64,000 nucleotides of DNA from a virus. The notes beneath the pieces are model-generated. The model saw only the letters and a program-made list of their open reading frames with translations. It made no database searches and was not told where the DNA came from. The stretch spans positions 32,001-96,000 of IMG/VR virus record IMGVR_UViG_3300044846_005100. One strand, 5' to 3'. Below, piece after piece: positions 1 through 32,082 of this stretch (positions within the stretch are counted from its first letter, which is position 1; each line of letters opens with the position of its first letter). The position numbers were made by a program, and so were the translations under genes.

Positions 1-130
1 AGTGATGGAGTACCCGTCTCGCTCCAATCTTAACTGCTTTCCCGATTTTTACGGTGCACCGGCAGAGGGTCATGACTATCCTTAGCCTACTTAGCTTGTC
101 GACAGCATAGGTAGAGGCGTCCACTATCTT
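1..130 (-). ncRNA. Unnamed structured RNA candidate, probably truncated by the window edge
   Basis: GC-rich non-coding sequence with several hairpins, starting right after the tRNA-Tyr 3' end. Confidence 0.4.
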
Positions 131-134
131 TTGT

Positions 135-214
135 TGGAAGGGACGGATTCGAACCGCCGTACTCTGAGAGAACAGATTTACAGTCTGCCGGTTTTAGCCA
201 CTCACCCACCTTCC
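135..214 (-). tRNA. tRNA-Tyr(GTA)
   Basis: Cloverleaf GGAAGG..CCTTCC, anticodon loop CTGTAAA, long variable arm, GGTTCGAATCC T-arm. Confidence 0.95.
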
Positions 215-220
215 AATAAA

Positions 221-357
221 TAAGCTGAAGAAAGTTAGAAAGGCATATTTATGTTGCATAAAACGGGGATCGAACCCGTGACCTTTTAAACCCAATTTAA
301 ACGCTCAACCAACTGAGCTATTCACGCGAAGTAACCTTTTCTATTACTATCAGCTTA
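221..357 (-). ncRNA. Y-RNA-like scaffold Y1 with a nested complete tRNA-like module (TGG loop)
   Basis: Terminal stem TAAGCTGA/TCAGCTTA; TAGTAA-N9-TTACTTC motif; internal cloverleaf GCGTGAA..TTTATGC. Confidence 0.8.
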
Positions 358-362
358 ATAAG

Positions 363-506
363 TTAAGACGAGAAAACGAATAGAGTTTTGCTGTTATAAG
401 GCAATTTATGAGATTGCTGTCTTTACCACTTGACTAATTCTCCATGCGGGGAATATAGGATTCGAACCTATGTTTACGAAGTACCTCTAATCTTGCTACG
501 TCTTAA
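363..506 (-). ncRNA. Y-RNA-like scaffold Y2 with a circularly permuted tRNA (T-arm, closed acceptor, D-arm, CAT anticodon arm)
   Basis: Stem TTAAGACG/CGTCTTAA; TAGCAA..TACTTC; ATAGGTTCGAATCCTAT precedes the D-arm TAGTCAAGTGGTAAAGAC. Confidence 0.8.
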
Positions 507-552
507 TAATTCAATGAACTTATTTGTTTTTTAAACCCAGTCGATTAGGTTT

Positions 553-760
553 AAAAAAGAGGCCGGCTTACATTCCATCTTCCGGCCTCTTAGGCTTGAT
601 CTTCATGCTAGCATCTGATCAAAGGTAGAGCTTCGCTTCCAAACTCTTCGCTCTCTAAAAAGGCAGCCGTCTCTTATGGGATCGCCAGCAGGATACCTTA
701 AGTCTTATAGTGAACTTAACAAAACTACTATTAGCTCATAGCTGAGGGAATATCTTCCAA
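553..760 (-). ncRNA. Unnamed structured RNA candidate ending in a terminator-like hairpin
   Basis: GC-rich non-coding sequence; AAGAGGCCGG/CCGGCCTCTT stem followed by a T run on the minus strand. Confidence 0.4.
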
Positions 761-764
761 ATGA

Positions 765-903
765 TAAAGGTAAAGAAAGTTTCCAACCGAGATTTTAGCG
801 CTCTATCCAGCTGAGCTAATGAGGATTACTCCCCATGTTGGATTCGAACCAACGACCTCTCGTTTAACAGACGAAGTAACGGTTTAGATTACTATTACCT
901 TTA
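765..903 (-). ncRNA. Y-RNA-like scaffold Y3 with a circularly permuted tRNA-Asn(GTT)-like module
   Basis: Stem TAAAGGTAA/TTACCTTTA; order is anticodon arm (CTGTTAA), T-arm, acceptor closed by GTAA, D-arm. Confidence 0.8.
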
Positions 904-909
904 ATAAGT

Positions 910-1074
910 TAAGATGAAGAATGTTGCAAATAGTGTTGTTTCTTAACGCGCGTCTACCAGTTCCGCCATTCCCCAATGAGTTGTTTGTAATATAGTCGGG
1001 GAAGAAGGATTCGAACCTTCAATGTACGTGCTCCAAATGCATACGAAGTAACTATTCAGCTTGCTATCATCTTA
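910..1074 (-). ncRNA. Y-RNA-like scaffold Y4 with a permuted tRNA module (T-arm, closed acceptor, Leu-type D-arm)
   Basis: Stem TAAGATGA/TCATCTTA; TAGCAA-N9-TTACTTC; GAAGGTTCGAATCCTTC precedes TGGCGGAACTGGTAGACGC. Confidence 0.8.
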
Positions 1075-1082
1075 TAATAAGT

Positions 1083-1213
1083 TTATCAGGAGAAAGTTGC
1101 AAAGGTGTAACGCTTTCGCGCTTCTGCGGGAATTGAACCCGCGGCCTATTTTGTTTAAGAAAATTGCTCAACCGCTGAGCTAAGAAGTAACCTTTTGCAT
1201 TACTACCCGATAA
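1083..1213 (-). ncRNA. Y-RNA-like scaffold Y5 with D, anticodon (TAA) and T arms fused through the acceptor position
   Basis: Stem TTATCGGG/CCTGATAA; CTTCT/AGAAG replaces the acceptor stem. Confidence 0.8.
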
Positions 1214-1242
1214 TTAATTTTTTCAAAGAACTTGTTTACTTT

Positions 1243-1253
1243 ATTATAATACT
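1243..1253 (-). promoter_or_regulatory. AGTATTATAAT promoter-like motif (also at 6574-6584 and 7087-7097)
   Basis: Identical intergenic 11-mer, three times, about 24-34 nt upstream of an RNA or ORF start. Confidence 0.55.
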
Positions 1254-1294
1254 AAGAATCCCTTTACGTTTAAAATTATTCTTAATATTTTTTG

Positions 1295-1368
1295 TAGTCA
1301 AGACAGGAGTCGAACCTGCAATCTCCCCAACATTCTGTCGGGGCGCGTTACCAATTAGCCACCTGACT
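1295..1368 (-). ncRNA. Atypical tRNA-like RNA (AGTCAGG acceptor family) with an extended anticodon arm
   Basis: AGTCAGG/CTTGACT acceptor, GCAGGTTCGACTCCTGT T-arm, 7-bp anticodon stem with 5-nt loop. Confidence 0.7.
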
Positions 1369-1373
1369 ATAAA

Positions 1374-1464
1374 AAGGATTGCTGGGGGAATACTGTCGAG
1401 AGTATGTTTGGTTTGCGTTTCAGATACAAGAAGTAACTCTGTAACTTGCCACCCAGCAATCTTT
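1374..1464 (-). ncRNA. Y-RNA-like scaffold Y6, minimal, with no tRNA module
   Basis: Stem GATTGCTGGG/CCCAGCAATC; TGGCAA-N9-TTACTTC; begins about 10 nt after the Ro60 stop codon. Confidence 0.75.
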
Positions 1465-1473
1465 ATTTTTTAT

Positions 1474-3102
1474 TTAGATCTTGATCTTTCGAACTTTCTC
1501 TAAGTGATAGTTTGGATTGAATTCGCTTTTCGCGATATCATCGAACATTGAGTATCCGTATCCATAGTAGAAACGAACTTTATCTCCTGCAAGTTGAGTC
1601 GTTCCATAAGCTGCTAGATCCACCGAGTAAACGTATGGGCTTCCGCATGCTTTTGTGTATGACTCGTATGCTTTGTAGCTGCTTCCGCGGTTACACTCAT
1701 TGTCAGATAAGATAAACACTCGGTCATACTGACGTCCAGACATTTGAGCTACTGCCCATGCGGCTGAAAGATTGGTTCCTCCCATATCTCTCTTCATTGC
1801 GCTAGCAATAGAGAATACATCAGAGTTAGCGTTCCATTTTACGTATTCAGCACTTGAACCGAATCGAATAACGTCTCCATTTGTTGCCTTTGCAATGGTT
1901 GCTGCAATTAATGCTGCCTTGTCCATGCATCGGCTAGTGTAACGTTTTCCGCTTCTTGCGCCATCAGTCATTGGAGTACCCATTGATCCAGAGAAATCCA
2001 CCATTACTAGAGTCTTACCAGGAAGCATCTCTGAAAGGTTTGGCACTGCTGCTTCATATCCTTTAAGTAATGCTTGTGCAATCGCTCTGGAGTTAGAATC
2101 AGAAAATTCTGAGATCGTTACCTCGTGAGCTAGGTCAATTTGGTATGGCATAATCTTTCCTTTTCGGATTGCGTCTGGACTAGATAGCAGAGCAGTCAAC
2201 TTAGTAACCGTGTCTCCTTTGTTAACTGTCTTCAATACATTTCTAATATTTCGAAGAGCAGCTAGGATTCCCAGTTTACCGTCAGTTAATAGAGCATCCC
2301 AGTTTTCAGCTTTCGCTTCTTTTAAGATTGTCTCGGCTTCGGACTTGTCGATTTTACCCTCTTTCACAGCTTTCGCAACCTCTTGACCTGCGTCAGATTG
2401 TGCTACTTCCCAAGTATCAGCTGAAACGCTTAAGCCTTTCATGATAGCGGAAAGAACTGGCACTTTTTCTCCATTTACTTCGGCTACTGCACTAGAAGCC
2501 TTTGGATTTGGGTGAACCAGGTTGATCACGTCAACTAGAGAGCTCTTGTATTTAAGTAGTGCATAAGCATCTAAGTTTTCAAGAGCATCCGCGAATCCTT
2601 TTTTCATCGCATTGGTTACCTTTGTTCCATTCAGTGCTGAGAAGCAAGCAACGATTTCTGCCATATCATCTGGACGGAATAGAGTTCCTCCGGATTGAGT
2701 ACGTTTGTTCCATAGGGAATAGAAACGTTTTGCCCATTCTTGACCCGCACAGTGTGGAGCTAGGTAGCTTGCTGCAAGGTGGTTAATTGATCTCATTCCT
2801 TCACCAACACATCTCGAATAAACGATTGATTGAGCTACGAAGTATGCATCTTCTTCTGCACACTCATCGACTAGTCCTTTCAACTCCCTCATCGTTTCTG
2901 TCTCAGAACGATAGAATTGATTTTCTAGCTTTAGTGTGTTTAACATCGTCAGGAGACGAAGCCACTTATCTTGTGAATAAGCTGCATGTCCTTGACGATT
3001 CTTAGTGTCTGGTTTTGGGATTTTCACCGCTTCTACCAGGTTCGCTTGAGGCTGCATTCCAGCTAGCGTCGAACGAAGCTTGTCGTTTCTAAACTTTGTC
3101 AT
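1474..3102 (-). CDS. rsr: Ro60/Rsr-like TROVE-domain RNA-binding protein with C-terminal vWA domain
   Basis: 542 aa; TROVE-like motifs (DTWE, ALRNIRN, MPY), vWA MIDAS DFSGSM, GGTN, LSDNE. Confidence 0.9.
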   Translation of the reverse strand: MTKFRNDKLRSTLAGMQPQANLVEAVKIPKPDTKNRQGHAAYSQDKWLRLLTMLNTLKLENQFYRSETETMRELKGLVDECAEEDAYFVAQSIVYSRCVGEGMRSINHLAASYLAPHCAGQEWAKRFYSLWNKRTQSGGTLFRPDDMAEIVACFSALNGTKVTNAMKKGFADALENLDAYALLKYKSSLVDVINLVHPNPKASSAVAEVNGEKVPVLSAIMKGLSVSADTWEVAQSDAGQEVAKAVKEGKIDKSEAETILKEAKAENWDALLTDGKLGILAALRNIRNVLKTVNKGDTVTKLTALLSSPDAIRKGKIMPYQIDLAHEVTISEFSDSNSRAIAQALLKGYEAAVPNLSEMLPGKTLVMVDFSGSMGTPMTDGARSGKRYTSRCMDKAALIAATIAKATNGDVIRFGSSAEYVKWNANSDVFSIASAMKRDMGGTNLSAAWAVAQMSGRQYDRVFILSDNECNRGSSYKAYESYTKACGSPYVYSVDLAAYGTTQLAGDKVRFYYGYGYSMFDDIAKSEFNPNYHLEKVRKIKI

Positions 3103-3196
3103 TAGTACAAGGAATTAATTTTTGTTTGTGATTAATACTATACAATAATTAAATTGATAGTTTCACGTTTTGCTTAAACTTTTTTCGAAAAAGGTT

Positions 3197-3272
3197 TGGT
3201 GCACCCTACAGGGATCGAACCTGTGACATCTTGCATGTAAAACAAGCGCTCTACCAGCTGAGCTAAAGGTGC
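3197..3272 (-). tRNA. tRNA-Val(TAC), CCA encoded
   Basis: Cloverleaf, anticodon loop TTTACAT. Confidence 0.95.
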
Positions 3273-3339
3273 ATAATAAACTCATTTTTGTTACAATAAA
3301 CAGTATTAGTTTATTGATACAAATTTATGTTTATTGAAT

Positions 3340-3460
3340 TGGTGGGGAAGGGCTTCTTAGGGCCAAATCATTAAATTTACTGTTTAATTGCGATGAAACT
3401 CTTTAATTACTATCATTGCTGAAGAACGGCAAAAGAGCGAATTGTTTTGCATTCTTCCCC
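3340..3460 (-). ncRNA. Inside-out Y-like RNA Y7: acceptor stem plus ACCA enclosing a permuted scaffold motif
   Basis: GGGGAAG/CTTCCCC-ACCA ends; internal CTCTTTTGCCGTTCTTCA-GCAA-TGATAGTAATTAAAGAG. Confidence 0.6.
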
Positions 3461-3465
3461 ATGTG

Positions 3466-3540
3466 TGATCCCGGTGGGGCTCGAACCCACGACTCCCTCA
3501 TTAAAAGTGAGGTGCTCTAAACCAACTGAGCTACGAGATC
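3466..3540 (-). tRNA. tRNA-Lys(TTT)
   Basis: Cloverleaf, loop CTTTTAA. Confidence 0.95.
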
Positions 3541-3593
3541 TCTCGTTTGCGACTCTTGTCGCTCTTGTCACTTTCCATAATCTTTGGATTTTT

Positions 3594-3812
3594 TTAAAGG
3601 TTTGTGATGTATCTGTTTAATAATTTTGCATCCATTAATGGATAAAAATCAGTATCTCCCATGTCTGTAACTGGAACTTGAAATTCAATATCTACTGTTT
3701 TACTTTCATGTTCAATTGGGGCTGAATAATAGGCTACTCCTAATCTGATGAACTTTAATTTTGCAATAGGCTTTTGTTTATAAAGCTCTTTTTTAATTAC
3801 GGTTTTTTCCAT
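3594..3812 (-). CDS. Hypothetical protein within the tRNA array
   Basis: 72-aa ORF with an A-rich leader. Confidence 0.75.
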   Translation of the reverse strand: MEKTVIKKELYKQKPIAKLKFIRLGVAYYSAPIEHESKTVDIEFQVPVTDMGDTDFYPLMDAKLLNRYITNL

Positions 3813-3829
3813 GAGTTTAATTTTTTATT

Positions 3830-3903
3830 TATGGATCACTCTATTTTAATTTGTGGCTCATCAGTCGAATAAAGTGATCCATATTGAATCGACTGATGAG
3901 CCA
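3830..3903 (-). other. H-type RNA pseudoknot
   Basis: 15-bp perfect stem 3854-3868/3889-3903; its loop 3873-3883 is complementary to 3830-3840 (11 bp). Confidence 0.7.
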
Positions 3904-3908
3904 TATTG

Positions 3909-3981
3909 TCTAAGCAGCAGGGATCGAACCTGCGGTCTCGTGGTCCCAAACCACGCGGATTACCAACTTTCCCATGCCTAG
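3909..3981 (-). tRNA. tRNA-Pro(TGG)
   Basis: Cloverleaf, loop TTTGGGA. Confidence 0.92.
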
Positions 3982-4043
3982 TTGTCCACTGTGTAGCATG
4001 CCGAAACAAGACTTTTTATATAGCGCACAGTGGATCGCTTTTG

Positions 4044-4127
4044 AGGAAGCCTGAGGTGTCGATCCCCATACCTTTCAGTACCAACTGTTTTCAAGACAGT
4101 GTTGCAGGCCGCTGCAATTAAACTTCC
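4044..4127 (-). tRNA. tRNA-Ser(TGA), atypical D and T loops
   Basis: Loop CTTGAAA, long variable arm, D-arm TTGCA-GCGGCC-TGCAA, T-loop ATCGACA. Confidence 0.8.
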
Positions 4128-4133
4128 TTATTG

Positions 4134-4204
4134 TTCTCCCCCAAGGATTCGAACCTCGGTCACTTGGCCCAAAACCAAGGGTCCTGCCGCTAGACGAGGG
4201 GAGA
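4134..4204 (-). tRNA. tRNA-Gln(TTG)
   Basis: Cloverleaf, loop TTTTGGG. Confidence 0.92.
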
Positions 4205-4212
4205 ATTTAAAG

Positions 4213-4229
4213 CCAATATGTCAAAGAAC
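4213..4229 (-). promoter_or_regulatory. rrn-type boxA antitermination element (identical copy at 6351-6367; variants at 1222-1231 and 510-519)
   Basis: GTTCTTTGACATATTGG on the minus strand, upstream of tRNAs. Confidence 0.6.
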
Positions 4230-4260
4230 ATTTTTTAGATTGAAGTTCAACAATCTTTTG

Positions 4261-4333
4261 AGCTTTCGACCGGGTTCGAACCGATGGCCACTTGATTACA
4301 AATCAAGAGCTCTACCAACTGAGCTACGAAAGC
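4261..4333 (-). tRNA. tRNA-Thr(TGT)
   Basis: Cloverleaf, loop TTTGTAA. Confidence 0.95.
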
Positions 4334-4341
4334 AATAAAAC

Positions 4342-4373
4342 AAAAAAAACCCGAATCGTTTGGACTCGGGTTT
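4342..4373 (-). terminator. Intrinsic terminator (attenuator 1)
   Basis: AAACCCGAGTC/GATTCGGGTTT stem followed by a T run. Confidence 0.8.
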
Positions 4374-4397
4374 CTTTTAGTTTGATATAGTTAAGAT

Positions 4398-4553
4398 TTA
4401 CATCAATTCCCGAGTATTTTTTAAGTGTTGTTTAGGATCAATAATCGTATTTGAGAAGCGCACAACATTAAAATCACAGTTCGTGTTCCAGCTCATCGGC
4501 GAGCTACTTAACGACTGATACGAAGATTTTAATATGTTGTTAATGTTTTTCAT
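4398..4553 (-). CDS. Putative leader peptide 1 (51 aa)
   Basis: MKNINNILKSSYQSLSSSPMSWNTNCDFNVVRFSNTIIDPKQHLKNTRELM; its 3' end carries ACTCGGG, complementary to the terminator 5' arm. Confidence 0.6.
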   Translation of the reverse strand: MKNINNILKSSYQSLSSSPMSWNTNCDFNVVRFSNTIIDPKQHLKNTRELM

Positions 4554-4668
4554 CGTGTTTATTTATCTTATCAATTTCTAATTTTTAACGCATTGGATCT
4601 TGAGGTTGCTAATATACACCTTTTATTTTAAAATAAAAAATATTTTTAGCTTTTTTTAAATTATTTTT

Positions 4669-4745
4669 TGGTGGTCCTTGCTGGAATCGAACCAGCCACC
4701 TACTGATTATGAGTCAGTTGCTCTAACCGAATGAGCTAAAGGACC
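4669..4745 (-). tRNA. tRNA with CAT anticodon (Ile2 or elongator Met), CCA encoded
   Basis: Cloverleaf GGTCCTT..AAGGACC, loop CTCATAA. Confidence 0.92.
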
Positions 4746-4908
4746 GTGTGCACGTTTTTATATTATCCCCAGAACGTACAAACTGTGCCGACACACGATT
4801 CGGAAGGCGTAGTGCGCATTGATTAAAGAATACCGAAGTATTCTAACTAACGTTCAAGAGGCTATCCCTATCTTCGATCCATACCCAGCGCTAGGCAGAG
4901 GGCTAGTT
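4746..4908 (-). ncRNA. Unnamed structured RNA candidate
   Basis: AGAATAC-TTCG-GTATTCT hairpin and further stems, between tRNA genes. Confidence 0.45.
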
Positions 4909-4909
4909 G

Positions 4910-5008
4910 TAGTCAGGAGGGGAATCGAACCCCTGTTGCCCTTAGTTGCTCTTACTTCTCAGTAAAGTGTGGGATCGAACCACACCTGGACCAAAGCTCC
5001 ACCTGACT
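4910..5008 (-). ncRNA. tRNA-like RNA (AGTCAGG family) with two T-arm-like hairpins
   Basis: AGTCAGG/CCTGACT; GTGTGG-TTCGATC-CCACAC and AGGGG-TTCGATT-CCCCT. Confidence 0.65.
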
Positions 5009-5011
5009 GTA

Positions 5012-5101
5012 AACACACTCTTCAGCTTTCTACTCCCAGCTCCGAGGAATTGTATATAACTTAGCCCATCTCACCGCTGTGTGGGAACTGAAGTTTATGT
5101 G
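5012..5101 (-). ncRNA. Unnamed structured RNA candidate
   Basis: Nested stems CTTCAG/CTGAAG and TCCCA/TGGGA. Confidence 0.5.
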
Positions 5102-5104
5102 ATG

Positions 5105-5219
5105 TAGTCAGGACAGGAATCGAACCTGTAAACCTACTTCCCATCTTCGGTTTTTTAACTCTAATGTTTAGAGTGGGTCAAACCACATTAGAGTACGTAT
5201 ACCATTCCGCCACCTGACT
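5105..5219 (-). ncRNA. tRNA-like RNA (AGTCAGG family) with a greatly expanded anticodon and variable domain
   Basis: Acceptor, D-arm TGGCGGAATGGTATACG, 10-bp ACTCTAATGT/ACATTAGAGT stem, T-arm. Confidence 0.7.
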
Positions 5220-5296
5220 ATGGACGGGCTTTTTGTCGATCTCTCTTAGGCTAGCCCGATACCGCCCTAAGTTCATTCAAGCGCTACTTGACATCG

Positions 5297-5378
5297 TACG
5301 CAAAGAGGGACTCGAACCCTCACACCTTTCGGCACTGGTTCCTAAGACCAGCGTGACTACCAATTCCACCATTCGCGC
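5297..5378 (-). tRNA. tRNA-Leu(TAG)
   Basis: Loop CTTAGGA, long variable arm. Confidence 0.95.
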
Positions 5379-5381
5379 AAA

Positions 5382-5483
5382 TTGAGGTTGAGAAGTCCTC
5401 TGTGTTGTAGTGTACGATTATGTTTTCCATAATTCAAGTAATGTCACTCATCTTTATATTTCCTTTCTCAAGGGAACAACACA
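5382..5483 (-). ncRNA. Kissing-loop RNA element, copy 1
   Basis: GTGTTGT/ACAACAC stem; TGAGAA complementary to the TTCTCA loop; second copy at 5778-5905. Confidence 0.65.
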
Positions 5484-5486
5484 AAA

Positions 5487-5620
5487 ATCATAAACAGAGG
5501 CTATTGGTGGTACCCGCGTCTAGCCATTACCAATCTAACTAGATTTGAGATGATCAAGATCACCTATACTATTTTATTCACGTAGGAATTACCCTTCTAC
5601 CTTTTCCGCGTGTTTATGAT
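5487..5620 (-). ncRNA. Unnamed structured RNA candidate
   Basis: Closing stem ATCATAAAC/GTTTATGAT. Confidence 0.45.
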
Positions 5621-5622
5621 AG

Positions 5623-5774
5623 TGGTTCTAGTAGGAATCGAACCCACCTTGTAAATTACATGCAATATGCCTTAACTTTTTACTCCGATCCTAGTATTAA
5701 GGAGTGTTAAACCAAATTGCCATCATCTACCCACTCGCGACTGCTGGGAGCTACCCACGTTATGCTATAGAACC
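5623..5774 (-). ncRNA. RNA with tRNA-like ends and an insert of about 110 nt
   Basis: GGTTCTA/TAGAACC acceptor, TAGC after the 5' strand, T-arm GTGGGTTCGATTCCTAC. Confidence 0.65.
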
Positions 5775-5777
5775 AAG

Positions 5778-5905
5778 TTGAGGATGAGAAGTCCTCTGTG
5801 TTGTGTGGTGTACCGCCGCCAGCCTTAATACATTATTTGTTGTTTAACCACCCTTAATAATATATCACTGGTACGACCGCACTCTTGTTTCTCAAGAAAC
5901 AACAC
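5778..5905 (-). ncRNA. Kissing-loop RNA element, copy 2
   Basis: Same conserved ends as 5382-5483 with a different insert. Confidence 0.65.
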
Positions 5906-5909
5906 GTAG

Positions 5910-5982
5910 TGGAGCAGGTGGGATTCGAACCCACATCCTCTACCTTGCAAAGGTAGCGCTCAGCCAGTTGAGCTACAACCCC
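5910..5982 (-). tRNA. tRNA-Ala(TGC)
   Basis: Cloverleaf, G3:U70 pair, loop TTTGCAA. Confidence 0.95.
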
Positions 5983-5989
5983 ATTTAAA

Positions 5990-6183
5990 AAACAAGTCTT
6001 CCGTGCTCACCACGGGTTTGGATTTGACTGATGGTTTGTTCCCCATCACCTGTTGACGTGCACATCAGAGCAGGGTCCATTACAGGATACCTTGGGGCAT
6101 TCAAACTCTCAGTAAAGGTTGCGATCCTATGAGAGCCAAGGTTTCTTTCATCCGCGCTATTCGGACTTCTGTAAGACTTGTTT
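5990..6183 (-). ncRNA. Large (about 194 nt) multi-stem ncRNA candidate
   Basis: 11-bp closing stem AAACAAGTCTT/AAGACTTGTTT; internal CCTTGG/CCAAGG, CTCTCA/TGAGAG and TGATGG/CCATCA. Confidence 0.6.
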
Positions 6184-6185
6184 AG

Positions 6186-6259
6186 AGCAGGTAGTCGGAC
6201 TCGAACCGACAACCCTCGCCTTGGAAGGGCGACGCTCTAGCCAATTGAGCTATACCTGC
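6186..6259 (-). tRNA. tRNA-Gly(TCC)
   Basis: Cloverleaf, loop CTTCCAA. Confidence 0.95.
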
Positions 6260-6266
6260 TTATTTG

Positions 6267-6340
6267 TGATCCCGGCACGATTCGAACGTGCGACCTTCGC
6301 CTTAGAAGGGCGTTGCTCTATCCGGCTGAGCTACGGAACC
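6267..6340 (-). tRNA. tRNA-Arg(TCT)
   Basis: Cloverleaf, loop CTTCTAA. Confidence 0.95.
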
Positions 6341-6389
6341 GTTTTTAGATCCAATATGTCAAAGAACTTTGGTACAAAATGTACCGCAG

Positions 6390-6462
6390 TAGCGGGGGCC
6401 AGATTCGAACTGACGTCCTCGGGTTATGAGCCCGCCGAGAATACCATCTTCTCCACCCCGCT
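6390..6462 (-). tRNA. tRNA-Met(CAT), initiator-like
   Basis: GGG/CCC anticodon stem, loop CTCATAA. Confidence 0.9.
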
Positions 6463-6468
6463 ATATTG

Positions 6469-6540
6469 TACTGCCACGGAGAATCGAACTCCGATTTTAT
6501 GGATGAAAACCATAGGTCCTAACCGTTAGACGATGGCAGC
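6469..6540 (-). tRNA. tRNA-Glu(TTC)
   Basis: Cloverleaf, loop TTTTCAT. Confidence 0.93.
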
Positions 6541-6606
6541 ATATTTAAAAAGAACGTTTTCTTTTTTGTTGTCATTATAATACTCTATTTCAAACTATAT
6601 TAAAAC

Positions 6607-6637
6607 AAAAAAACCTCAACTTTTTGGGTTGAGGTTT
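6607..6637 (-). terminator. Intrinsic terminator (attenuator 2)
   Basis: AAACCTCAAC/GTTGAGGTTT stem followed by a T run. Confidence 0.8.
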
Positions 6638-6658
6638 AAATATTCTTATATTCTTGAC

Positions 6659-6742
6659 TCAACTTATTAACCGCACTCTTCCCTCGCCTGCTTCTATCAG
6701 AAGGGCCGCTCTAAGGATTGAGATATTTGTTAATTGTTTCAT
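6659..6742 (-). CDS. Putative leader peptide 2 (27 aa)
   Basis: MKQLTNISILRAALLIEAGEGRVRLIS; GTTGAG across the stop codon pairs with the terminator 5' arm; TATTTTTG -7 box at about 6783-6790. Confidence 0.55.
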   Translation of the reverse strand: MKQLTNISILRAALLIEAGEGRVRLIS

Positions 6743-6820
6743 TGAAAGTATCAATAGTTATTTTGTTGTATTATTTATACTGCAAAAATATAAAAAGTTT
6801 CAATTGTTGAAAAATTTATT

Positions 6821-7063
6821 TTACAATTCATCAAGATTTGCTAGTGTGTCAACACAAACTATTACTTGATCTTTTGGAAAATACCACTTGTCGAGGAAGG
6901 TTCCTCCCTTTTCGTATTCGCCCCAATCGTAATCTTCTTTAAGTGTTTGAAGTACGTGTTCAACGCTTTTTGCCTTCATTTTAAGAAGGTTAGAGTCAGC
7001 TGCTTCTCTGTGAGTTGTTAGTCCAACATTCTCGGTACCGATGATGTAAGTGCGTAATGCCAT
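6821..7063 (-). CDS. Hypothetical protein
   Basis: Co-oriented ORF behind an AGTATTATAAT motif. Confidence 0.75.
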   Translation of the reverse strand: MALRTYIIGTENVGLTTHREAADSNLLKMKAKSVEHVLQTLKEDYDWGEYEKGGTFLDKWYFPKDQVIVCVDTLANLDEL

Positions 7064-7113
7064 TTGGTTAAATTTAAAAGGTTTTAATTATAATACTCTT
7101 TTTAAAGTAAGTT

Positions 7114-7518
7114 TTAAATCAAATTCTTCTTTTTTAGCTCAGCATGTTTTACCATCACACTCTTTCGTATTTTAGAAAAGAGTTTAGGGAATTGGGTGAC
7201 TGTCCACACTAACACTTGTACATGCCACGTAGTTATTAAATTAAAGACTTTAGAAAAGAAGGAGTGTTTCATTTCAGGTTCTATCTTCCAGTCTGGCACA
7301 TTTTCCAAGTAGATCTTAAGTTGTCGATGTAAGACTACTTGATGTTCAAACATGTCATCTGACTGGGTATACTGTCGATATATCCTGACTTTACGTAAGT
7401 ATTCAATTGCATGGTCAACTGCCATCATAGCCTCCTCTTTAGATGGATACATTACTTGCATCTCCTCAATCTTTTTAGGAAAATCTGCTCTACTTCGTAA
7501 GATTATCATCGCTCGCAT
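7114..7518 (-). CDS. Hypothetical protein
   Basis: Operon-packed ORF. Confidence 0.7.
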   Translation of the reverse strand: MRAMIILRSRADFPKKIEEMQVMYPSKEEAMMAVDHAIEYLRKVRIYRQYTQSDDMFEHQVVLHRQLKIYLENVPDWKIEPEMKHSFFSKVFNLITTWHVQVLVWTVTQFPKLFSKIRKSVMVKHAELKKKNLI

Positions 7519-7918
7519 ACTCAGTTTCGATTAATCTTTGAATTCTCATTCTGCCTTTTTCACCAATTGGAATAGGATTTCCCTCTTCATCAATATGTAC
7601 AAATTTGATTTGAGTTTTTAGAACGACTATTTGCTTTCCAGTATAAACGTTATGCGCTCTAGCTTCCATGTATAGAACAATACTAGTATTGCCTAATCCT
7701 GCAGGACCACCATATATCTTTATTAATTGACCCTCTTTTGCAGGTTTCTCAAAGAAACATTTTTCAATAGATACTGTTACCATTCGAGGAGTATCACACA
7801 GTTGCATTGAGTATCCGGCAGCAGCGGCATCGATCCATGCCAGGAGTTTACCCCCAAATAGGTTTCCGTGAAATCCTAGATCAGATTTCTTAATTGGATG
7901 AGTGTTTAATAATTCCAT
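7490..7918 (-). CDS. Hotdog-fold acyl-CoA thioesterase (YciA-like)
   Basis: DLGFHGNLFGGKLLAWID motif; C-terminal FVHIDEEGNP. Confidence 0.85.
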   Translation of the reverse strand: MELLNTHPIKKSDLGFHGNLFGGKLLAWIDAAAAGYSMQLCDTPRMVTVSIEKCFFEKPAKEGQLIKIYGGPAGLGNTSIVLYMEARAHNVYTGKQIVVLKTQIKFVHIDEEGNPIPIGEKGRMRIQRLIETEYASDDNLTK

Positions 7919-8184
7919 TATTCTTTTTCCTTAGTATTGAATTTTACTAATATCTCGTTTCGAAGTTCCAATGCTTTACGTCTTTCAGTAAAGCTTGAAC
8001 CTTTTTCCATGTCTCCAAGTGCAGCTAAGAATACATTTAATTCTTCATCATTTGCTGTTTCTGCAATAAAATCATATTCGTCATCTGTAATATTAAACAG
8101 GACTTTAATTACATTATCAAACATGTCATGGATTCCTCCTCCACTTACAATACATGCCTGTACTTCTGGTCTAAGTATTTTCAT
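7918..8184 (-). CDS. Hypothetical protein
   Basis: Operon-packed ORF. Confidence 0.75.
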   Translation of the reverse strand: MKILRPEVQACIVSGGGIHDMFDNVIKVLFNITDDEYDFIAETANDEELNVFLAALGDMEKGSSFTERRKALELRNEILVKFNTKEKE

Positions 8185-8637: not shown

Positions 8638-8961
8638 TTAATATGTGTTTATTTTATTTAGGATACGTCCCTTTAATTCAGTGTCCTGTAGATTTTCAGA
8701 ATTGATAATTTCTTCAAGTAGATCTTTCATCTCCTCTTTGGATTTTTCTTTTGCTCTTAGTCTATTTCTAAGTTCAACTTGATAGAGATGATATGCAACT
8801 TCATCAACTTCTCGAAGCTTATTAAAGTATTTTTCAACTCTCTGATCAAGACGTCTGCTTTTTTCCATACTAGTCACATTGGGCAAGGCTTTATGTAATT
8901 CATCAAGTCTTCCTTTAAGATATTGAATCTCTCCAAATTTTTGAATTTCTTGTGAAGTCAT
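8638..8961 (-). CDS. Hypothetical coiled-coil protein
   Basis: Operon-packed ORF. Confidence 0.75.
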   Translation of the reverse strand: MTSQEIQKFGEIQYLKGRLDELHKALPNVTSMEKSRRLDQRVEKYFNKLREVDEVAYHLYQVELRNRLRAKEKSKEEMKDLLEEIINSENLQDTELKGRILNKINTY

Positions 8962-9520: not shown

Positions 9521-10744
9521 TTAATTTGAAAGCGGTGCTTTAATATGTGCGTGTGCTTGATAGTTTTCTACTTGAAAATCTGTTGGGTCTAAATGTGTAA
9601 ATACAGATGCATCTTCACTTAACGCTTTATAGAACTCGTCAGTTTTCATATGTTTTAAAGTTGGTAGTGGATATGGTTCTCTTGTTCGAGTTGGAATATT
9701 ATTTTCGTCTAACTCATCTTTTGTGTAGTATGATTGATAATCATTTGTACTTATTTGAATACCGTTTCTTTCCTCCAAGGTTAATTCTCTACCAATTTGT
9801 TCTTTTGCTTGTTCAATATGGTTTGAATACAAGTGAACATCACCCAAGTTTCCAATCAATTCATCTGGAACCATATTAACTACTTTAGCTATGATTTCCA
9901 ATAACAATCCGTAAGATGCAATATTGAATGGTAAACCTAAGAATGTATCTACTGAACGTTGATTCCACATTAAAGAGATTGCTCTGGTTGGAATGTTGTG
10001 TTTGTTACAAAAATCCTTTCTAAAGTCTTTTATATTATGATGTGGGTTAGTTTCTAATGATATTGACAATTCTTTTTCAAATATCTCTAACAAATTAAGG
10101 GTTTCTATAAATCGTAATCTTTCAGTTAATTTCAACTCTCTTGTATAAACTTGAAATCCATAATGGCATGGTGGAAGTACCATTTGGTCTAATTCTCCTA
10201 CATTCCAAGCACTAACCATTAATCGTCTTGAGTCTGGATTTGTTTTAAGGTCATTGATTAGATTTTGGATTTGGTCTATTTCTTTACTTTCGGTCCATTC
10301 ACCATTTCCTAAATAAGATGTATCTACATTCCATTTACGCCAACCAGCTCCATAAATCGGTCCTAATTCACCCCACTTTCTAGCAAAATTATCATCTGTT
10401 TTGATTTTGTTAATGAACTCTTCTTTTGTTTCTAATCTATCGTGTGGAGGATGATTCATTAAAAAATTCTTATAAGCATCCCCATTCCAAATATGGCAAT
10501 CATTATCCACTAAATACTTAATGTTTGTATCACCACGAAGGAACCATAACAATTCAGTTACCATTGTCTTAAATGCCATTTTCTTGGTAGTTAACAATGG
10601 GAATCCTTCTTTCATATTATGTCTTATTTGTCTACCAAATACTGAAATAGTACCAGTACCTGTTCTATCTTTCTTTTCTACTCCATTATCCAAGATGTCT
10701 TGAAGCAATGCTTGATAATCTTTATCTAATTTATTCATAATCAT
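9521..10744 (-). CDS. thyA: Thymidylate synthase with insertions
   Basis: DRTGTGT, LPPCH, NQRSVD, GLPFNIASY, DVHLYSNH. Confidence 0.97.
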   Translation of the reverse strand: MIMNKLDKDYQALLQDILDNGVEKKDRTGTGTISVFGRQIRHNMKEGFPLLTTKKMAFKTMVTELLWFLRGDTNIKYLVDNDCHIWNGDAYKNFLMNHPPHDRLETKEEFINKIKTDDNFARKWGELGPIYGAGWRKWNVDTSYLGNGEWTESKEIDQIQNLINDLKTNPDSRRLMVSAWNVGELDQMVLPPCHYGFQVYTRELKLTERLRFIETLNLLEIFEKELSISLETNPHHNIKDFRKDFCNKHNIPTRAISLMWNQRSVDTFLGLPFNIASYGLLLEIIAKVVNMVPDELIGNLGDVHLYSNHIEQAKEQIGRELTLEERNGIQISTNDYQSYYTKDELDENNIPTRTREPYPLPTLKHMKTDEFYKALSEDASVFTHLDPTDFQVENYQAHAHIKAPLSN

Positions 10745-11189: not shown

Positions 11190-11423
11190 TTAATTAATAA
11201 TTTGTATTTCATTTTGAGTTTCAATCCAAACCTTAGCTCCACAAGATAGTGGTTTATTTGGACTGTATTTTATTGTAGCAACAATATTACCTTGTTTATC
11301 TAATATATTTACATTATTAGCATAATTATTTGATTTATAATTTTTACAAGTAATAACTGGTAAATTAGCTCCTTTACTATTTGCTTTAATATTGTGTTGA
11401 TTTACATGAATAATATTTTTCAT
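11190..11423 (-). CDS. Small hypothetical phage protein
   Basis: IHVNQHNI...KPLSCGAKVWIET. Confidence 0.75.
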   Translation of the reverse strand: MKNIIHVNQHNIKANSKGANLPVITCKNYKSNNYANNVNILDKQGNIVATIKYSPNKPLSCGAKVWIETQNEIQIIN

Positions 11424-11433
11424 ACTCTATGAT

Positions 11434-13629
11434 TTAAAAGTTAATTTCACATGATCCGCCAGAACAAGCAACTCCAGCTAATTCATCAGCATTTAAATAC
11501 TTTTCTTGGTAATTTACTTTAGAGAAGTCAATAGGCTTATTTTTCAGTACTCTATTAATTTTTACCCATTTGTGGTATAGATGAATATCTTTCAAGCATT
11601 CTGTAGCATTGTTCATGTTATTTTTAAAATAGTTCTTAGCAAACTTTTTAATTCTACTAACAATATCTTTTTTAACCATTACTGTAATTCTATCTCCTGA
11701 CAAAACAAAAGTTCTATCTGTTACTGCAGAACATACATCCCATAGATCATTATTAAAACAATGTAAAGCATCTACAATTAATCCTGAAGCAAATAAGGCT
11801 GCATCTCCATATTTATTTACTAATTGTTCCTGAGTAAGTACTTCTGTAAAAGGAGCTTGCTTATAAATTTTGTCTCCTGAATTTGGTAGAAAAGATAACC
11901 CACAGAAATCTTCTTTATTCTCAAAAATGTAATCAAAAGCTTTATCCCAATCTGATACACTCACTGTGTTAGATACATTATGTGTAATAGTAGCACTATA
12001 CCCAAGTTCTTTATTAGTCCCTGGTAATACCCAATATTTATAGACTAATTGCACTGCTTTTAAAAATTCAATTTCATCTACTTGAGATTTTACAATAGTT
12101 TCAGGAGTTTCTTGCATAGGAATAAAACAAGCGTAATCACTATTGGTTGGGCTCCACACTCCTTCTTCTAACAATTCAGGATAGTTTTCATTCAAAAACT
12201 TAGCCATTGGAGTATCTTTGTTTAATTGTATAGTTCTGAAATAGTTATGTGCATGTGCAGGATGAATCCCTGAAGCTGTCATAGCCAATACAGAAGCATT
12301 TCCCGAAGGTTTTACACAAGTTGTTCTAGCGGCCTGACTAATTCCAATTAATTCTGCAACTATTTTATTAGTTTCTTTAACGATTTCAGCTCCTTTTTCT
12401 AAGATTTCAGGATTCAATAAAATTAAAGGGTTGTTCATAATTCCTGTAATAGAAACTCCTAACAATGCTTCCCAATTAATTAATTCTTCTGTTTCTTTTC
12501 CTAAGAAAGGCATATTAGTGTAAGATGCTTGGAATGTTCCTAATATAGCAGCAGCTTTGCATGCTTCATAGAATTTTTCAGGAGTAGTACATTTTGCCCC
12601 AATAATTTCATTTAAATTACAGAATGACCAACAAGATTTTCCTGTAAAAGGATTGATAGGTTTAAATCCAATTTCAACACAAGGATTCACCATCATATCA
12701 ATATCATCTACTAATACAACACCTGGCTCTCCAAATTGTTTGATAAATTCTTTATAGGCATCCAATTCTTCTTTTGTAATAGAAGATTTTAATATTTTGG
12801 CAGAATTATTAGCTCTTGCTCTCCAAGGAGTATCCATCCACCAATTTCCTGTTTTACAAGAAAGCATATCTTGATCATCTTTATCAAATAAAGAAATTAA
12901 TGCACTTCTTCTAACACCTCCAGATAAAACTGCATCTGATAAAATACAAATAATATCGTGACAGTCTAAAGATTTTAAAACGTATTCTTCTTTAGCTAAT
13001 TTAGCATCTAGTATCTTCTCTATTAGTTCCAAAGATTTTTTTAACCCATCAGGTCCTGGAGCAATAAATTCTCCTGCTATAAGCTCTCCTTTAGCTCTAA
13101 TTTTAGAGTAATCAAATAATACTTTTTGCGTACCATTAAAATAAGAGAATAATAAAGTGTCAATAGCTATTGCCCAACCTTCGATAGAATCATCTATTAC
13201 ATGAACAAAATGAGAGTTTGTGTCTCTCTTCATAATTCTAGGAAGATTTGCAATAAATCTTTTCTCTACTGAGAAACCAACTCCTGCACCACAAAGAAGC
13301 ACATACATAATTTCTTTGAATACTTCAGGTCTATCTACATAAGTAACTGAACAATTGTATAATTTAACATTATGAGCAGTGATATGTTTTTCTCTAAATT
13401 GAAGATTTCTTTGAGAAGCCAATATCTCCATATTATTGTATGCTTGTTTAGCAATGTCAAAATAAGGTTGTATTTGGCCCCAATTTTCTCTTTGAGAGAA
13501 TTTATTATAATGCATTTGCATCACATCATTTACCGACTCTTCCCAAGTCTCTAAACGATTTTCATTTTTTAAGAATTTTGCATAAGATTCTTTAAACTTT
13601 AGCTGTGAAGCTATTTCTTTACCATTCAT
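11434..13629 (-). CDS. nrdJ: Ribonucleotide reductase, class II-like
   Basis: YNC, GGVRRSA, NPCVEI, TCVKPSG, C-terminal CSGGSC; no beta subunit nearby. Confidence 0.85.
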   Translation of the reverse strand: MNGKEIASQLKFKESYAKFLKNENRLETWEESVNDVMQMHYNKFSQRENWGQIQPYFDIAKQAYNNMEILASQRNLQFREKHITAHNVKLYNCSVTYVDRPEVFKEIMYVLLCGAGVGFSVEKRFIANLPRIMKRDTNSHFVHVIDDSIEGWAIAIDTLLFSYFNGTQKVLFDYSKIRAKGELIAGEFIAPGPDGLKKSLELIEKILDAKLAKEEYVLKSLDCHDIICILSDAVLSGGVRRSALISLFDKDDQDMLSCKTGNWWMDTPWRARANNSAKILKSSITKEELDAYKEFIKQFGEPGVVLVDDIDMMVNPCVEIGFKPINPFTGKSCWSFCNLNEIIGAKCTTPEKFYEACKAAAILGTFQASYTNMPFLGKETEELINWEALLGVSITGIMNNPLILLNPEILEKGAEIVKETNKIVAELIGISQAARTTCVKPSGNASVLAMTASGIHPAHAHNYFRTIQLNKDTPMAKFLNENYPELLEEGVWSPTNSDYACFIPMQETPETIVKSQVDEIEFLKAVQLVYKYWVLPGTNKELGYSATITHNVSNTVSVSDWDKAFDYIFENKEDFCGLSFLPNSGDKIYKQAPFTEVLTQEQLVNKYGDAALFASGLIVDALHCFNNDLWDVCSAVTDRTFVLSGDRITVMVKKDIVSRIKKFAKNYFKNNMNNATECLKDIHLYHKWVKINRVLKNKPIDFSKVNYQEKYLNADELAGVACSGGSCEINF

Positions 13630-14854: not shown

Positions 14855-16363
14855 TTATTCTTGATTATCTTCTAAATTTGTTTCTCCTTTTTCTTGAGCA
14901 TCAGATTCTCCTAAAATAAATCTTTTAGATTTTAATTTATATGCTTCATAAGAATACATGTTTTCTTTTCTCAAGATTATTCCTTCTTCTGGAACTTTAT
15001 TATTACACATATAACAATCTTTTTCATTATATTTTATTTCTAAATCAGCTAACATAGGTTCTCTGAAATCTAAAAATCCTGTTAAATTATTTTTTTCTAA
15101 ATAATTCTGAACAGTACCGTAATAAATAAAAGTGTCTTTGTATAACAACCCTACTTTTTCACAATATTCTTCAATTTGTTTATCAGTTAAAAAGATTACT
15201 TTTCCATCAGGATTTACCACTGAAATTTTGTAAACATAAAATTTATGTTGTGGTTTTTTAACTGTTTCTAATTCTTTTAACAAATCTTGAGGAATTGTTT
15301 CAAAAATATCATCCAATCTACCAATAAAAAATTTAAACTTTTCTTCATCGTATAAATTATATTTTTTTAATAAATCTTCTTTTTGCTTTTTATTTAAAGC
15401 TTTCCAAGCTTCTTTATAGGATTTTTTATCATCGCTACCTAAAACAGTACAACCGTAATCATACGCTCCTTGTATTGGGGCCCCTGAAGCAGTGTAACCT
15501 AAAATTTCTCCATAAAGTGTCCAATTTTTAGGAATTAAATGTCCTATTTCTTTGGCCACAACTCCCCAAATATCTTCTCCATAAAATCCTCCTCCTTTTG
15601 TTGGATTCAAATATTGGTTTTTAATTACTTTTCTCGAAGAATAAACAATGTCATAATCTTCTTCCTTAATATTCACTCCTACTTTTTTCAATAATTTTTC
15701 ATACCATGATAAAGGAGTTTTTACTAATACATTTCCAACTACCATTGAAGTACCATGCTTCTTGTAGTGAATACCGATAATATCATCAGGATTGATTTTA
15801 TCCATATTTTTACGAAGATTATCAGTATCTCCATGTAAATAAAATTGGCCTTCAATTAATCTATCAATACCTTTTGGCTGTTTATGGGATTTAGTAGCAT
15901 TACTTCCTCTTTGTTGTACAGGTACAATATATTTTTCACAGAGAGTATTACCATTAATTTCTGTAAATTCATCTCCTATATTTAAAGAGTCAATAGATGA
16001 ACTTTCTAAAAAAGAGTTTAAACTACTTAAAGGCATCAACATTCCATCAGATATTTCTCCTCTGAGTTTGATTGCTTTTACACGTTTTTGTTTAAAACTG
16101 ATAAACCCTTTTTGGGCTGTATCTAAATTTTCTTCAGATTTATCATACAAATTATTTTTTTTACAATAATCTGCATTTAATTTAGTACCAGATACAAAAT
16201 AAAGCATTATATCTCCTTCTTTTACATTTTTGGAACATACTACTGTATTACCATTTACAATAGTTTTTACGATCATATCTGCTCCTTCTATTGGGAGAAT
16301 TTTTTTAACTTCAACTACACTACATGCATAGTTTTTGGAATTTTCATTTACTGATAATGTCAT
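14855..16363 (-). CDS. ATP-dependent RNA ligase (DRB0094/Rnl2-like) with N-terminal OB-type domain
   Basis: PIEGAD, KLRGEISDG, motif I KKHGTS, YGE, EEGIIL, YKLK. Confidence 0.85.
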   Translation of the reverse strand: MTLSVNENSKNYACSVVEVKKILPIEGADMIVKTIVNGNTVVCSKNVKEGDIMLYFVSGTKLNADYCKKNNLYDKSEENLDTAQKGFISFKQKRVKAIKLRGEISDGMLMPLSSLNSFLESSSIDSLNIGDEFTEINGNTLCEKYIVPVQQRGSNATKSHKQPKGIDRLIEGQFYLHGDTDNLRKNMDKINPDDIIGIHYKKHGTSMVVGNVLVKTPLSWYEKLLKKVGVNIKEEDYDIVYSSRKVIKNQYLNPTKGGGFYGEDIWGVVAKEIGHLIPKNWTLYGEILGYTASGAPIQGAYDYGCTVLGSDDKKSYKEAWKALNKKQKEDLLKKYNLYDEEKFKFFIGRLDDIFETIPQDLLKELETVKKPQHKFYVYKISVVNPDGKVIFLTDKQIEEYCEKVGLLYKDTFIYYGTVQNYLEKNNLTGFLDFREPMLADLEIKYNEKDCYMCNNKVPEEGIILRKENMYSYEAYKLKSKRFILGESDAQEKGETNLEDNQE

Positions 16364-31887: not shown

Positions 31888-32082
31888 TTTGATTTGGGTT
31901 TAATTGTTAAAAAAATTTTTTTTGATATATAAAGACAGAAAGTAGAAATACAATCCTGCCATTAAAAATCCTATCCAAGCGTTGATATGGTTAAATACCC
32001 AGATAGAAAAATATCCTACGATAAGGGATAAAAGGGTTAGTGCTAAAAATTTGTTGGTTGTCATTTTTTATAAAATTTTAAG

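Follow-up and report, generated by a model that had tools for sequence, protein, structure and literature searches.

The closest described systems are the leader-peptide attenuators of enterobacteria, among them thrL (Thr/Ile), ilvGMEDA (Ile/Val/Leu), trpL, hisL, leuL, and pheL. Like these, module 1 of the phage tRNA array described here has a leader with regulatory codons that is predicted to be translated, an intrinsic terminator, and a mutually exclusive antiterminator, the 5' strand of which would be occluded by a ribosome at the leader end. As in the multivalent thrL and ilvGMEDA systems, several amino acids or tRNAs would be sensed at once. The enterobacterial attenuators control biosynthetic enzymes, whereas module 1 precedes phage tRNA genes, and in place of runs of one codon it has rare wobble-read NNG codons naming the downstream tRNAs. 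Module 1 also differs in lacking a clear 1:2 protector helix and in its setting, a Bacteroidota-type host with no Shine-Dalgarno sequences and with TAnnTTTG promoters.

Control of a component of the translation apparatus by charged-tRNA supply is known from the pheM leader attenuator of Escherichia coli pheST. Module 1 resembles it as a charged-tRNA-responsive leader-peptide attenuation of the translation apparatus, but pheM is cellular, senses one amino acid, and regulates an aminoacyl-tRNA synthetase, while here viral tRNA sets themselves would be regulated. T-box riboswitches share with module 1 a choice between terminator and antiterminator that depends on tRNA status. A T-box needs no ribosome, as its RNA itself binds the uncharged tRNA; in contrast, module 1 has no T-box signature and contains a conserved ORF predicted to be translated. 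Phage tRNA genes are usually seen as a fixed supply, either fitted to the codon usage of the phage or making up for host tRNAs that have been cleaved, and to our knowledge the control of their expression is largely unknown. Searches of the full-text literature, with incomplete coverage, gave no account of tRNA genes or phage tRNA arrays being controlled by leader-peptide attenuation.

We analyzed a window of 64,000 nucleotides, positions 32,001 to 96,000 of the 140-kb virus record IMGVR_UViG_3300044846_005100 (~28% G+C). The DNA polymerase of the phage has its closest counterparts, at ~30% identity, in crAss-like Bacteroidota phages and in the cyanophage Leptolyngbya phage Lbo-JY46, and the genes of the window have A-rich leaders without Shine-Dalgarno sequences. 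The phage appears from its sequence to be of the Bacteroidota type. A GenBank search for close phage genomes found none, with scattered tRNA matches only. All tRNA genes of the array are carried on the minus strand. Module 1 is probably a ribosome-mediated leader-peptide transcription attenuator gating the distal tRNA array. By itself it is a middling example, and the strongest evidence for attenuation is comparative. Its features, from the upstream border to the last tRNA behind the terminator, are as follows.

4669-4745, minus strand: tRNA-Met(CAU), upstream border of the module 1 spacer
About 335 nt, minus strand: spacer from tRNA-Met(CAU) to tRNA-Thr(UGU), holding the leader ORF and the terminator
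4554-4668, minus strand: 5' leader part of the spacer, from tRNA-Met to the leader start codon, A-rich and without a Shine-Dalgarno sequence, as for the phage's other genes
4398-4553, minus strand: leader ORF of 51 codons, ATG to TAA, MKNINNILKSSYQSLSSSPMSWNTNCDFNVVRFSNTIIDPKQHLKNTRELM
4482-4526, minus strand: regulatory-codon cluster, codons 10-24 (S S Y Q S L S S S P M S W N T)
4490-4505, minus strand: GC-rich hairpin in mid-ORF, AGCUCG-CCGA-UGAGCU, with one compensatory and several one-sided changes in relatives
4409-4415, minus strand: antiterminator 5' strand ACUCGGG, codons 47 and 48 and the first base of codon 49
4382-4406, minus strand: inner hairpin UUGAUGUA...UAUAUCAA within the antiterminator helix, containing the stop codon UAA (4398-4400)
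4341-4379, minus strand: intrinsic terminator T1, from a terminator scan and folding
4363-4372, minus strand: 5' arm of the T1 core stem, AACCCGAGUC, with CCCGAGU at 4364-4370
4358-4362, minus strand: T1 loop CAAAC
4348-4357, minus strand: T1 3' arm, GAUUCGGGUU
4342-4349, minus strand: T1 U8 tract
3908-4333, minus strand: gated sub-array of Thr, Gln, Ser-like, and Pro genes
4260-4333, minus strand: tRNA-Thr(UGU), called by ARAGORN and Rfam
4133-4204, minus strand: tRNA-Gln(UUG), called by ARAGORN and Rfam
~4036-4126, minus strand: Ser(UGA)-like cloverleaf, type-II fold with anticodon UGA
3908-3981, minus strand: tRNA-Pro(UGG), called by ARAGORN and Rfam

The 51-codon ORF named in the original prediction is present, running from 4553 to 4398 on the minus strand, and its stop codon lies 24 nt short of the terminator (AAACCC starts at 4373). 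It is the longest leader among the 14 modules compared. The original count of its G/C-ending codons was exact, with TCG three times, ACG twice, and CCG, CGC, and CGG once each. Eight codons of the leader contain CG. Windows of 51 codons taken from the phage's own genes (n=555) average 0.47 such codons and never exceed 5. GC3 is 0.47 in the leader versus 0.20 in genes, and its mean ln RSCU lies 5 SD below that of the phage genes. Among codons 10-24 are TCT, TCG (three times), CAG, CCG, and ACG. All of these are decoded by the tRNAs encoded behind the terminator, Ser(UGA)-like, Gln(UUG), Pro(UGG), and Thr(UGU). Over the whole leader, 12 of the 51 codons belong to the Ser, Thr, Pro, and Gln boxes and 7 of these are NNG. 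Half of the Ser codons (4 of 8, three of them inside the cluster) are AGY and unreadable by tRNA-Ser(UGA).

Folded alone, T1 has a free energy of -22.2 kcal/mol (z=-6.5), and with the A-tract/U-tract extension it reaches 17 pairs. From the end of its U-tract to the first base of tRNA-Thr there are 8 nt. ACTCGGG near the end of the ORF, proposed from the start as a partner of the terminator, is the exact complement of CCCGAGT in the T1 5' arm (4370-4364). A ribosome terminating at the stop codon, 9-15 nt further downstream, would have this strand within its footprint. When the T1 3' arm is left out, the minimum-energy fold of the RNA pairs ACUCGGG with CCCGAGU around a small hairpin (-13.5 kcal/mol, z=-3.9); with the 3' arm included, the terminator fold wins over the antiterminator. 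The duplex of the T1 5' arm with the upstream 67 nt has p=0.0005 in 2000 shuffles. The inner hairpin at 4382-4406 is kept in relatives with one G-U change.

A search for a trp-type 1:2 protector helix gave a 4-bp UCCU:GGGA pairing, plus the separate mid-ORF hairpin at 4490-4505, which may be a transcription pause hairpin. No clear helix of this type is apparent in the module 1 sequence and therefore untranslated RNA should default to read-through. Membership in the Rfam family Thr_leader (RF00506) was rejected, as the match reached 33 bits against a gathering score of 55 and its identities are concentrated in the terminator half.

Seven sequence variants of module 1 were collected from viral and metagenomic contigs, with peptide identities of 76-82%. 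The leader frame is open in all seven, across 54 variable columns in AT-rich DNA, and the variable columns number 11, 16, and 27 at codon positions 1, 2, and 3. Pairwise dN/dS is 0.23-0.51 over all informative pairs. Relative L012 has a 6-nt in-frame deletion in the leader, and L002 has a 7-nt insertion 3' of the antiterminator strand that alters the last residues only. Between 11 and 13 codons of the Ser(UCN), Thr, Pro, and Gln boxes are kept in every variant, with single positions swapping among these residues. The leader frame, judged by this pattern of substitution, looks translated. No variation is seen in the antiterminator strand, in either terminator arm, or in codons 38-48. Since the paired bases of terminator and antiterminator do not vary in these seven close relatives, the module 1 helices offer no covariation, and support for the antiterminator pairing therefore comes from non-homologous sister modules. 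The C-terminal IDPKQHLKNTR is near-invariant even at third positions (1 change in 33 nt). The invariance of the C-terminal third suggests an extra constraint at the peptide or RNA level that the attenuator model does not explain. Homologues of the leader peptide form only 4 database clusters, at 76-78% identity, and among 35 Ro60-linked loci a DNA profile of module 1 matched the nearest relatives only. A GCUAA/UUAGC hairpin just after tRNA-Met, seen in a single-sequence fold, was dropped as it is absent from L002, L003, and L005.

T1 was originally placed directly upstream of tRNA-Thr, Gln, Ser, and Pro. The Thr, Gln, and Pro genes stand as called, while the Ser gene is present only as a non-canonical UGA cloverleaf that neither ARAGORN nor Rfam calls. 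Its T-arm, GGGG AUCGACA CCUC, is non-canonical. A canonical tRNA-Ser(UGA) occupies the same place in L002, L010, and L012. As the 8-nt gap leaves no room for a promoter, the Thr, Gln, Ser-like, and Pro genes are reachable by T1 read-through only. In L010 (~3225-3300) and L012 (~3215-3290), the terminator is followed not by the usual tRNA-Thr(UGU) but by a variant of it whose D-arm is highly atypical. The variant retains the UGU anticodon loop and the acceptor stem but is not called by ARAGORN.

Several other elements lie in the array. Between tRNA-Leu(UAG) and tRNA-Met are two tRNA-like sequences on the minus strand, 4910-5008 and 5105-5219, with acceptor ends AGTCAGG/CCTGACT and long odd interiors, also uncalled by ARAGORN. 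A freshwater-1 RNA (RF02979) is found at 6023-6084 on the minus strand as a full-length Rfam match (86 bits against a gathering score of 72), with tRNA-Gly on one side and tRNA-Ala on the other. The space between tRNA-Pro and tRNA-Lys holds a 72-codon ORF (3594-3812, minus strand), and L012 has a called ORF of equal length. With neither a Pfam match nor a terminator behind it, this ORF does not look like a leader.

The first reading of the sequence had also pointed to a second module at the head of the array, and the full layout is present there.

6607-6790, minus strand: sister module 2 at the array head, with -7 box, leader, and terminator, followed by tRNAs
6659-6742, minus strand: module 2 leader of 27 codons, MKQLTNISILRAALLIEAGEGRVRLIS
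6611-6637, minus strand: module 2 terminator, T2

In module 2, GUUGAG spanning the stop codon pairs with the terminator arm CUCAAC. The tRNAs that follow are Glu, Met, Arg, Gly, Ala, and Leu(UAG), and the leader run RAALLIEAGEGR names almost exactly these. A CGG four codons before the stop was considered as a fixed feature of both leaders and rejected, as the module 2 CGG is TTG in L010.

With the Ro60 protein of the phage we also retrieved 35 loci (37-99% identity), in which tRNAs and terminators were then mapped. In relatives sharing Ro60 at 38-83% identity, strong terminators repeatedly stand 1-67 nt ahead of a tRNA block. Every terminator chosen for the test is preceded by an ORF of 17-51 codons that stops 3-32 nt before the stem. 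Thirteen further modules share the layout of module 1; they come from Ro60-carrying relatives and from the cultured Cellulophaga phage phi4:1 (L049, NC_021788.1). In phi4:1, three promoter/mini-ORF/terminator modules split the 22-tRNA array. Of the mini-ORFs, one is annotated (gp075) and two are not. An identical 38-nt promoter segment is found in the first two modules. Examples of these leaders and the tRNAs behind them are given here.

L024: leader MKNLFHTTTSSSTSTSSC..., then Ser, Ser, Thr, Cys, His, Thr
L016: leader ...ILPLSLRPSIRRS..., then Ser, Arg, Pro, Ile, Met, Leu
L018: leader ...FMPQANAPFAQVGIAKW..., then Phe, Pro, Ala, Trp, Gln, Ile
L021: leader ...PTGVKFVSTLKSTGAG..., then Val, Lys, Lys, Thr, Gly, Val
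phi4:1, ~8700-8845, ~9640-9815, and ~11420-11575, reverse strand: its three modules
phi4:1: leader MKIQRLHLQELEQP..., then Pro, Glu, Gln, His, Leu, Leu, Arg
phi4:1: leader ...TKTGITVIDKTKGARAYLGDTVIG, annotated as gp075 hypothetical protein, then Ala, Lys, Ile, Gly, Met, Asp, Thr, Val, Arg
phi4:1: leader MKTNYCTYNNSNWSFSY..., then Tyr, Ser, Asn, Trp, Phe

The leader ORFs of the Ro60-carrying phages mostly start with MKNxxNI(L/S), as in the window and in L016, L018, L019, L021, L024, L026, and L046, regardless of how the peptide continues. The shared start could have been inherited through duplication of modules, or initiation or early elongation may require it.

Leaders were scored by the fraction of their residues, or of their codons under wobble rules, that is served by the first 3, 4, 6, or 8 downstream tRNAs, and the scores were compared with random re-pairings of leaders and tRNA sets using one representative per homologous group. 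With 11 modules, at most 1 in 100,000 permutations reached the observed match (p<=1e-5) for every set size and with both amino-acid and codon scoring. With 14 modules, the match was 0.415 versus 0.242 (z=6.1) and was reached by 0 of 200,000 permutations (p<=5e-6). Module 1 alone ranks 4th-5th of 14 for its own tRNA set, which was scored without the uncalled Ser-like gene. NNG codons in boxes served by downstream U34 tRNAs number 25, with 7.4 expected from the long ORFs of the same phages. NNG codons are the most sensitive to the level of the wobble-reading tRNA.

The complement to the terminator arm recurs as well, with p<0.06 in 9 of 11 modules (Fisher p=1.4e-9). When nascent transcripts are folded, 10 of the 11 modules have the partner strand of the terminator arm at the ORF end, either overlapping the stop codon or finishing 0-17 nt 5' of it. 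Control terminators without following tRNAs (n=31, from the same loci) had a median p of 0.45, with 6% below 0.05 and a Fisher p of 0.33. Antiterminator complementarity is thus specific to terminators that precede tRNAs. The geometry of ribosome-mediated attenuation that was proposed for module 1 holds, and it is backed by three independent comparisons, namely the recurrent layout in 13 further modules, the match of leaders to tRNAs, and the specificity of the antiterminator relative to controls. Sequence and comparison directly show the anatomy and alternative folds of the module, the constraint on its ORF as coding sequence, the correspondence of codons and tRNAs across the family, and the specificity of the complement.

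The one clear promoter box of the array is the canonical Bacteroidota-type -7 box TATTTTTG at 6783-6790 on the minus strand, ahead of module 2. Such a TAnnTTTG box is found 4-69 nt upstream in 10 of the 14 leaders; module 1 is not among them, and no canonical box was found before its leader. Lacking a canonical promoter for its leader, module 1 is probably an internal gate for transcription that started at the array head. The spacer at 4554-4668 holds the invariant motif GGTGTATATTAGCAACC. A conserved GGTGTATATTAGC motif of module 1 resembles the start-site region of the promoter-bearing modules and might be a weak promoter. A scan for sigma-70-type promoters gave no excess over shuffles (20 matches versus 16.2) and none that is convincing for the leader. 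Just 3' of T2, the motif AGAGTATTATAA (6574-6586, minus strand) is nearly invariant in six relatives while the surrounding spacer is variable. Its TATAAT-like -10 match could be a second, terminator-independent promoter for tRNA-Glu onward.

A Ro60 homologue with TROVE and vWA domains is encoded within the array (1474-3102, minus strand). A further Bacteroidota-type -7 box, at 3320-3327 on the minus strand, could drive tRNA-Val and Ro60 on its own, and for this reason read-through from T1 as far as Ro60 is only a possibility. A weak YrlA-like match is found at 797-860. At 14855-16363 on the minus strand, some 8 kb before the array begins, lies the gene of an RNA-ligase-like protein (PHA02142 OB fold and RNA_ligase). 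The RNA-ligase-like protein, Ro60, and the full tRNA set amount to a phage toolkit for RNA repair and quality control.

We infer termination at T1, its dependence on translation, and the physiological signal sensed as follows. Transcription would enter module 1 from upstream, and the leader would be translated as the RNA emerges. A ribosome reaching the stop codon would cover ACUCGGG, so that the terminator forms and RNA polymerase halts at the U-tract, with 8 nt still to go to tRNA-Thr. Stalling would be likeliest at rare Ser, Gln, Pro, and Thr codons, mostly NNG, wobble-read by the U34 tRNAs encoded just downstream; such codons stand at positions 10-24 and again at 36, 40, 42, and 47. An early stall would leave ACUCGGG free to pair with CCCGAGU, no terminator would form, and tRNA-Thr, Gln, Ser-like, and Pro would be transcribed. 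The outcome would be a negative feedback, in which tRNAs are made when the pool decoding their codons runs short. Possible triggers are a poor host tRNA supply, cleavage by an anticodon nuclease, and high demand, such as late in infection. The module was initially described as a sensor of host tRNA depletion. This is one reading, as a stalled ribosome would report the total charged pool, host and phage, for the regulatory codons.

In a broader and more tentative proposal, which we regard as unlikely in its full form, phage tRNA arrays would be chains of codon-matched attenuators, each sensing its own subset, and module 1 would in addition couple a shortage of Thr, Gln, Ser, and Pro decoders to read-through into the Ro60/Y-RNA-like region. 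Such a shortage could follow attack by a host anticodon nuclease. If true, a single ribosomal sensor would switch on tRNA replacement and RNA quality control together.

Module 1 might instead be an ordinary small phage protein gene with its own terminator, the tRNAs being expressed by constitutive leaky read-through and the ACUCGGG complement being incidental. The frame is under purifying selection, the strict conservation of IDPKQHLKNTR is like that of a functional peptide, and MKNxxNI is an N-terminus common to many such ORFs; the lack of any Pfam family matching the leader peptide can be listed on the same side. An ordinary gene does not account for a codon use 5 SD away from that of the phage genes, nor for a complement (p=0.0005) that non-homologous sister modules share and control terminators do not. 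It also leaves aside that leader composition follows the downstream tRNAs over 14 modules, and the peptide family is confined to one narrow lineage, that of the four clusters above. We consider a plain protein gene to be improbable.

If the frame were fortuitous, the element could be a non-coding structured RNA, either an sRNA or a spacer element in tRNA-precursor processing, with the GC-rich codons a by-product of its stems. The excess of variation at third positions (with dN/dS given as <0.5), the in-frame deletion, and a frame that stays open through the 54 variable columns of AT-rich DNA are against this, as is the presence in every non-homologous sister module of an ORF ending at the antiterminator strand. 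The spacer, folded as 333 nt, does fold better than shuffles (z=-4.2), its internal hairpins are conserved, and its CpG-rich codons are atypical of coding DNA here. Sub-threshold Rfam matches to terminator-bearing sRNAs were also obtained; they are driven by the generic terminator, family membership was rejected, and no Rfam family reached its threshold for the element. A non-coding element seems very improbable to us. Even less probable is antitermination independent of translation, in which the leader RNA, acting like a T-box or riboswitch, would stabilize the antiterminator through direct binding of a tRNA or other ligand. A terminator/antiterminator platform is available for it and the regulated genes are tRNAs, which T-boxes sense. 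Yet no T-box or riboswitch match to Rfam was obtained in 4335-4670 even at E<=10, nor a T-box match at E<=1 in 1-8000, and no conserved specifier or T-box sequence was found in module 1. Peptide composition is linked to the downstream tRNAs and the antiterminator strand sits where the ORF ends, both of which favor a ribosomal sensor.

If the modules attenuate transcription, these phages would gauge how fast individual codons are decoded and produce each tRNA subset as needed. Textbook ribosome-mediated attenuation would then extend to a new class of target and to Bacteroidota-type systems. Many of the tiny 'hypothetical' ORFs in phage tRNA arrays, gp075 of phi4:1 for example, would be explained. 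The modules would also be compact natural sensors of tRNA availability, and phi4:1, with its cultured host, would offer a phage-host pair for their direct study.
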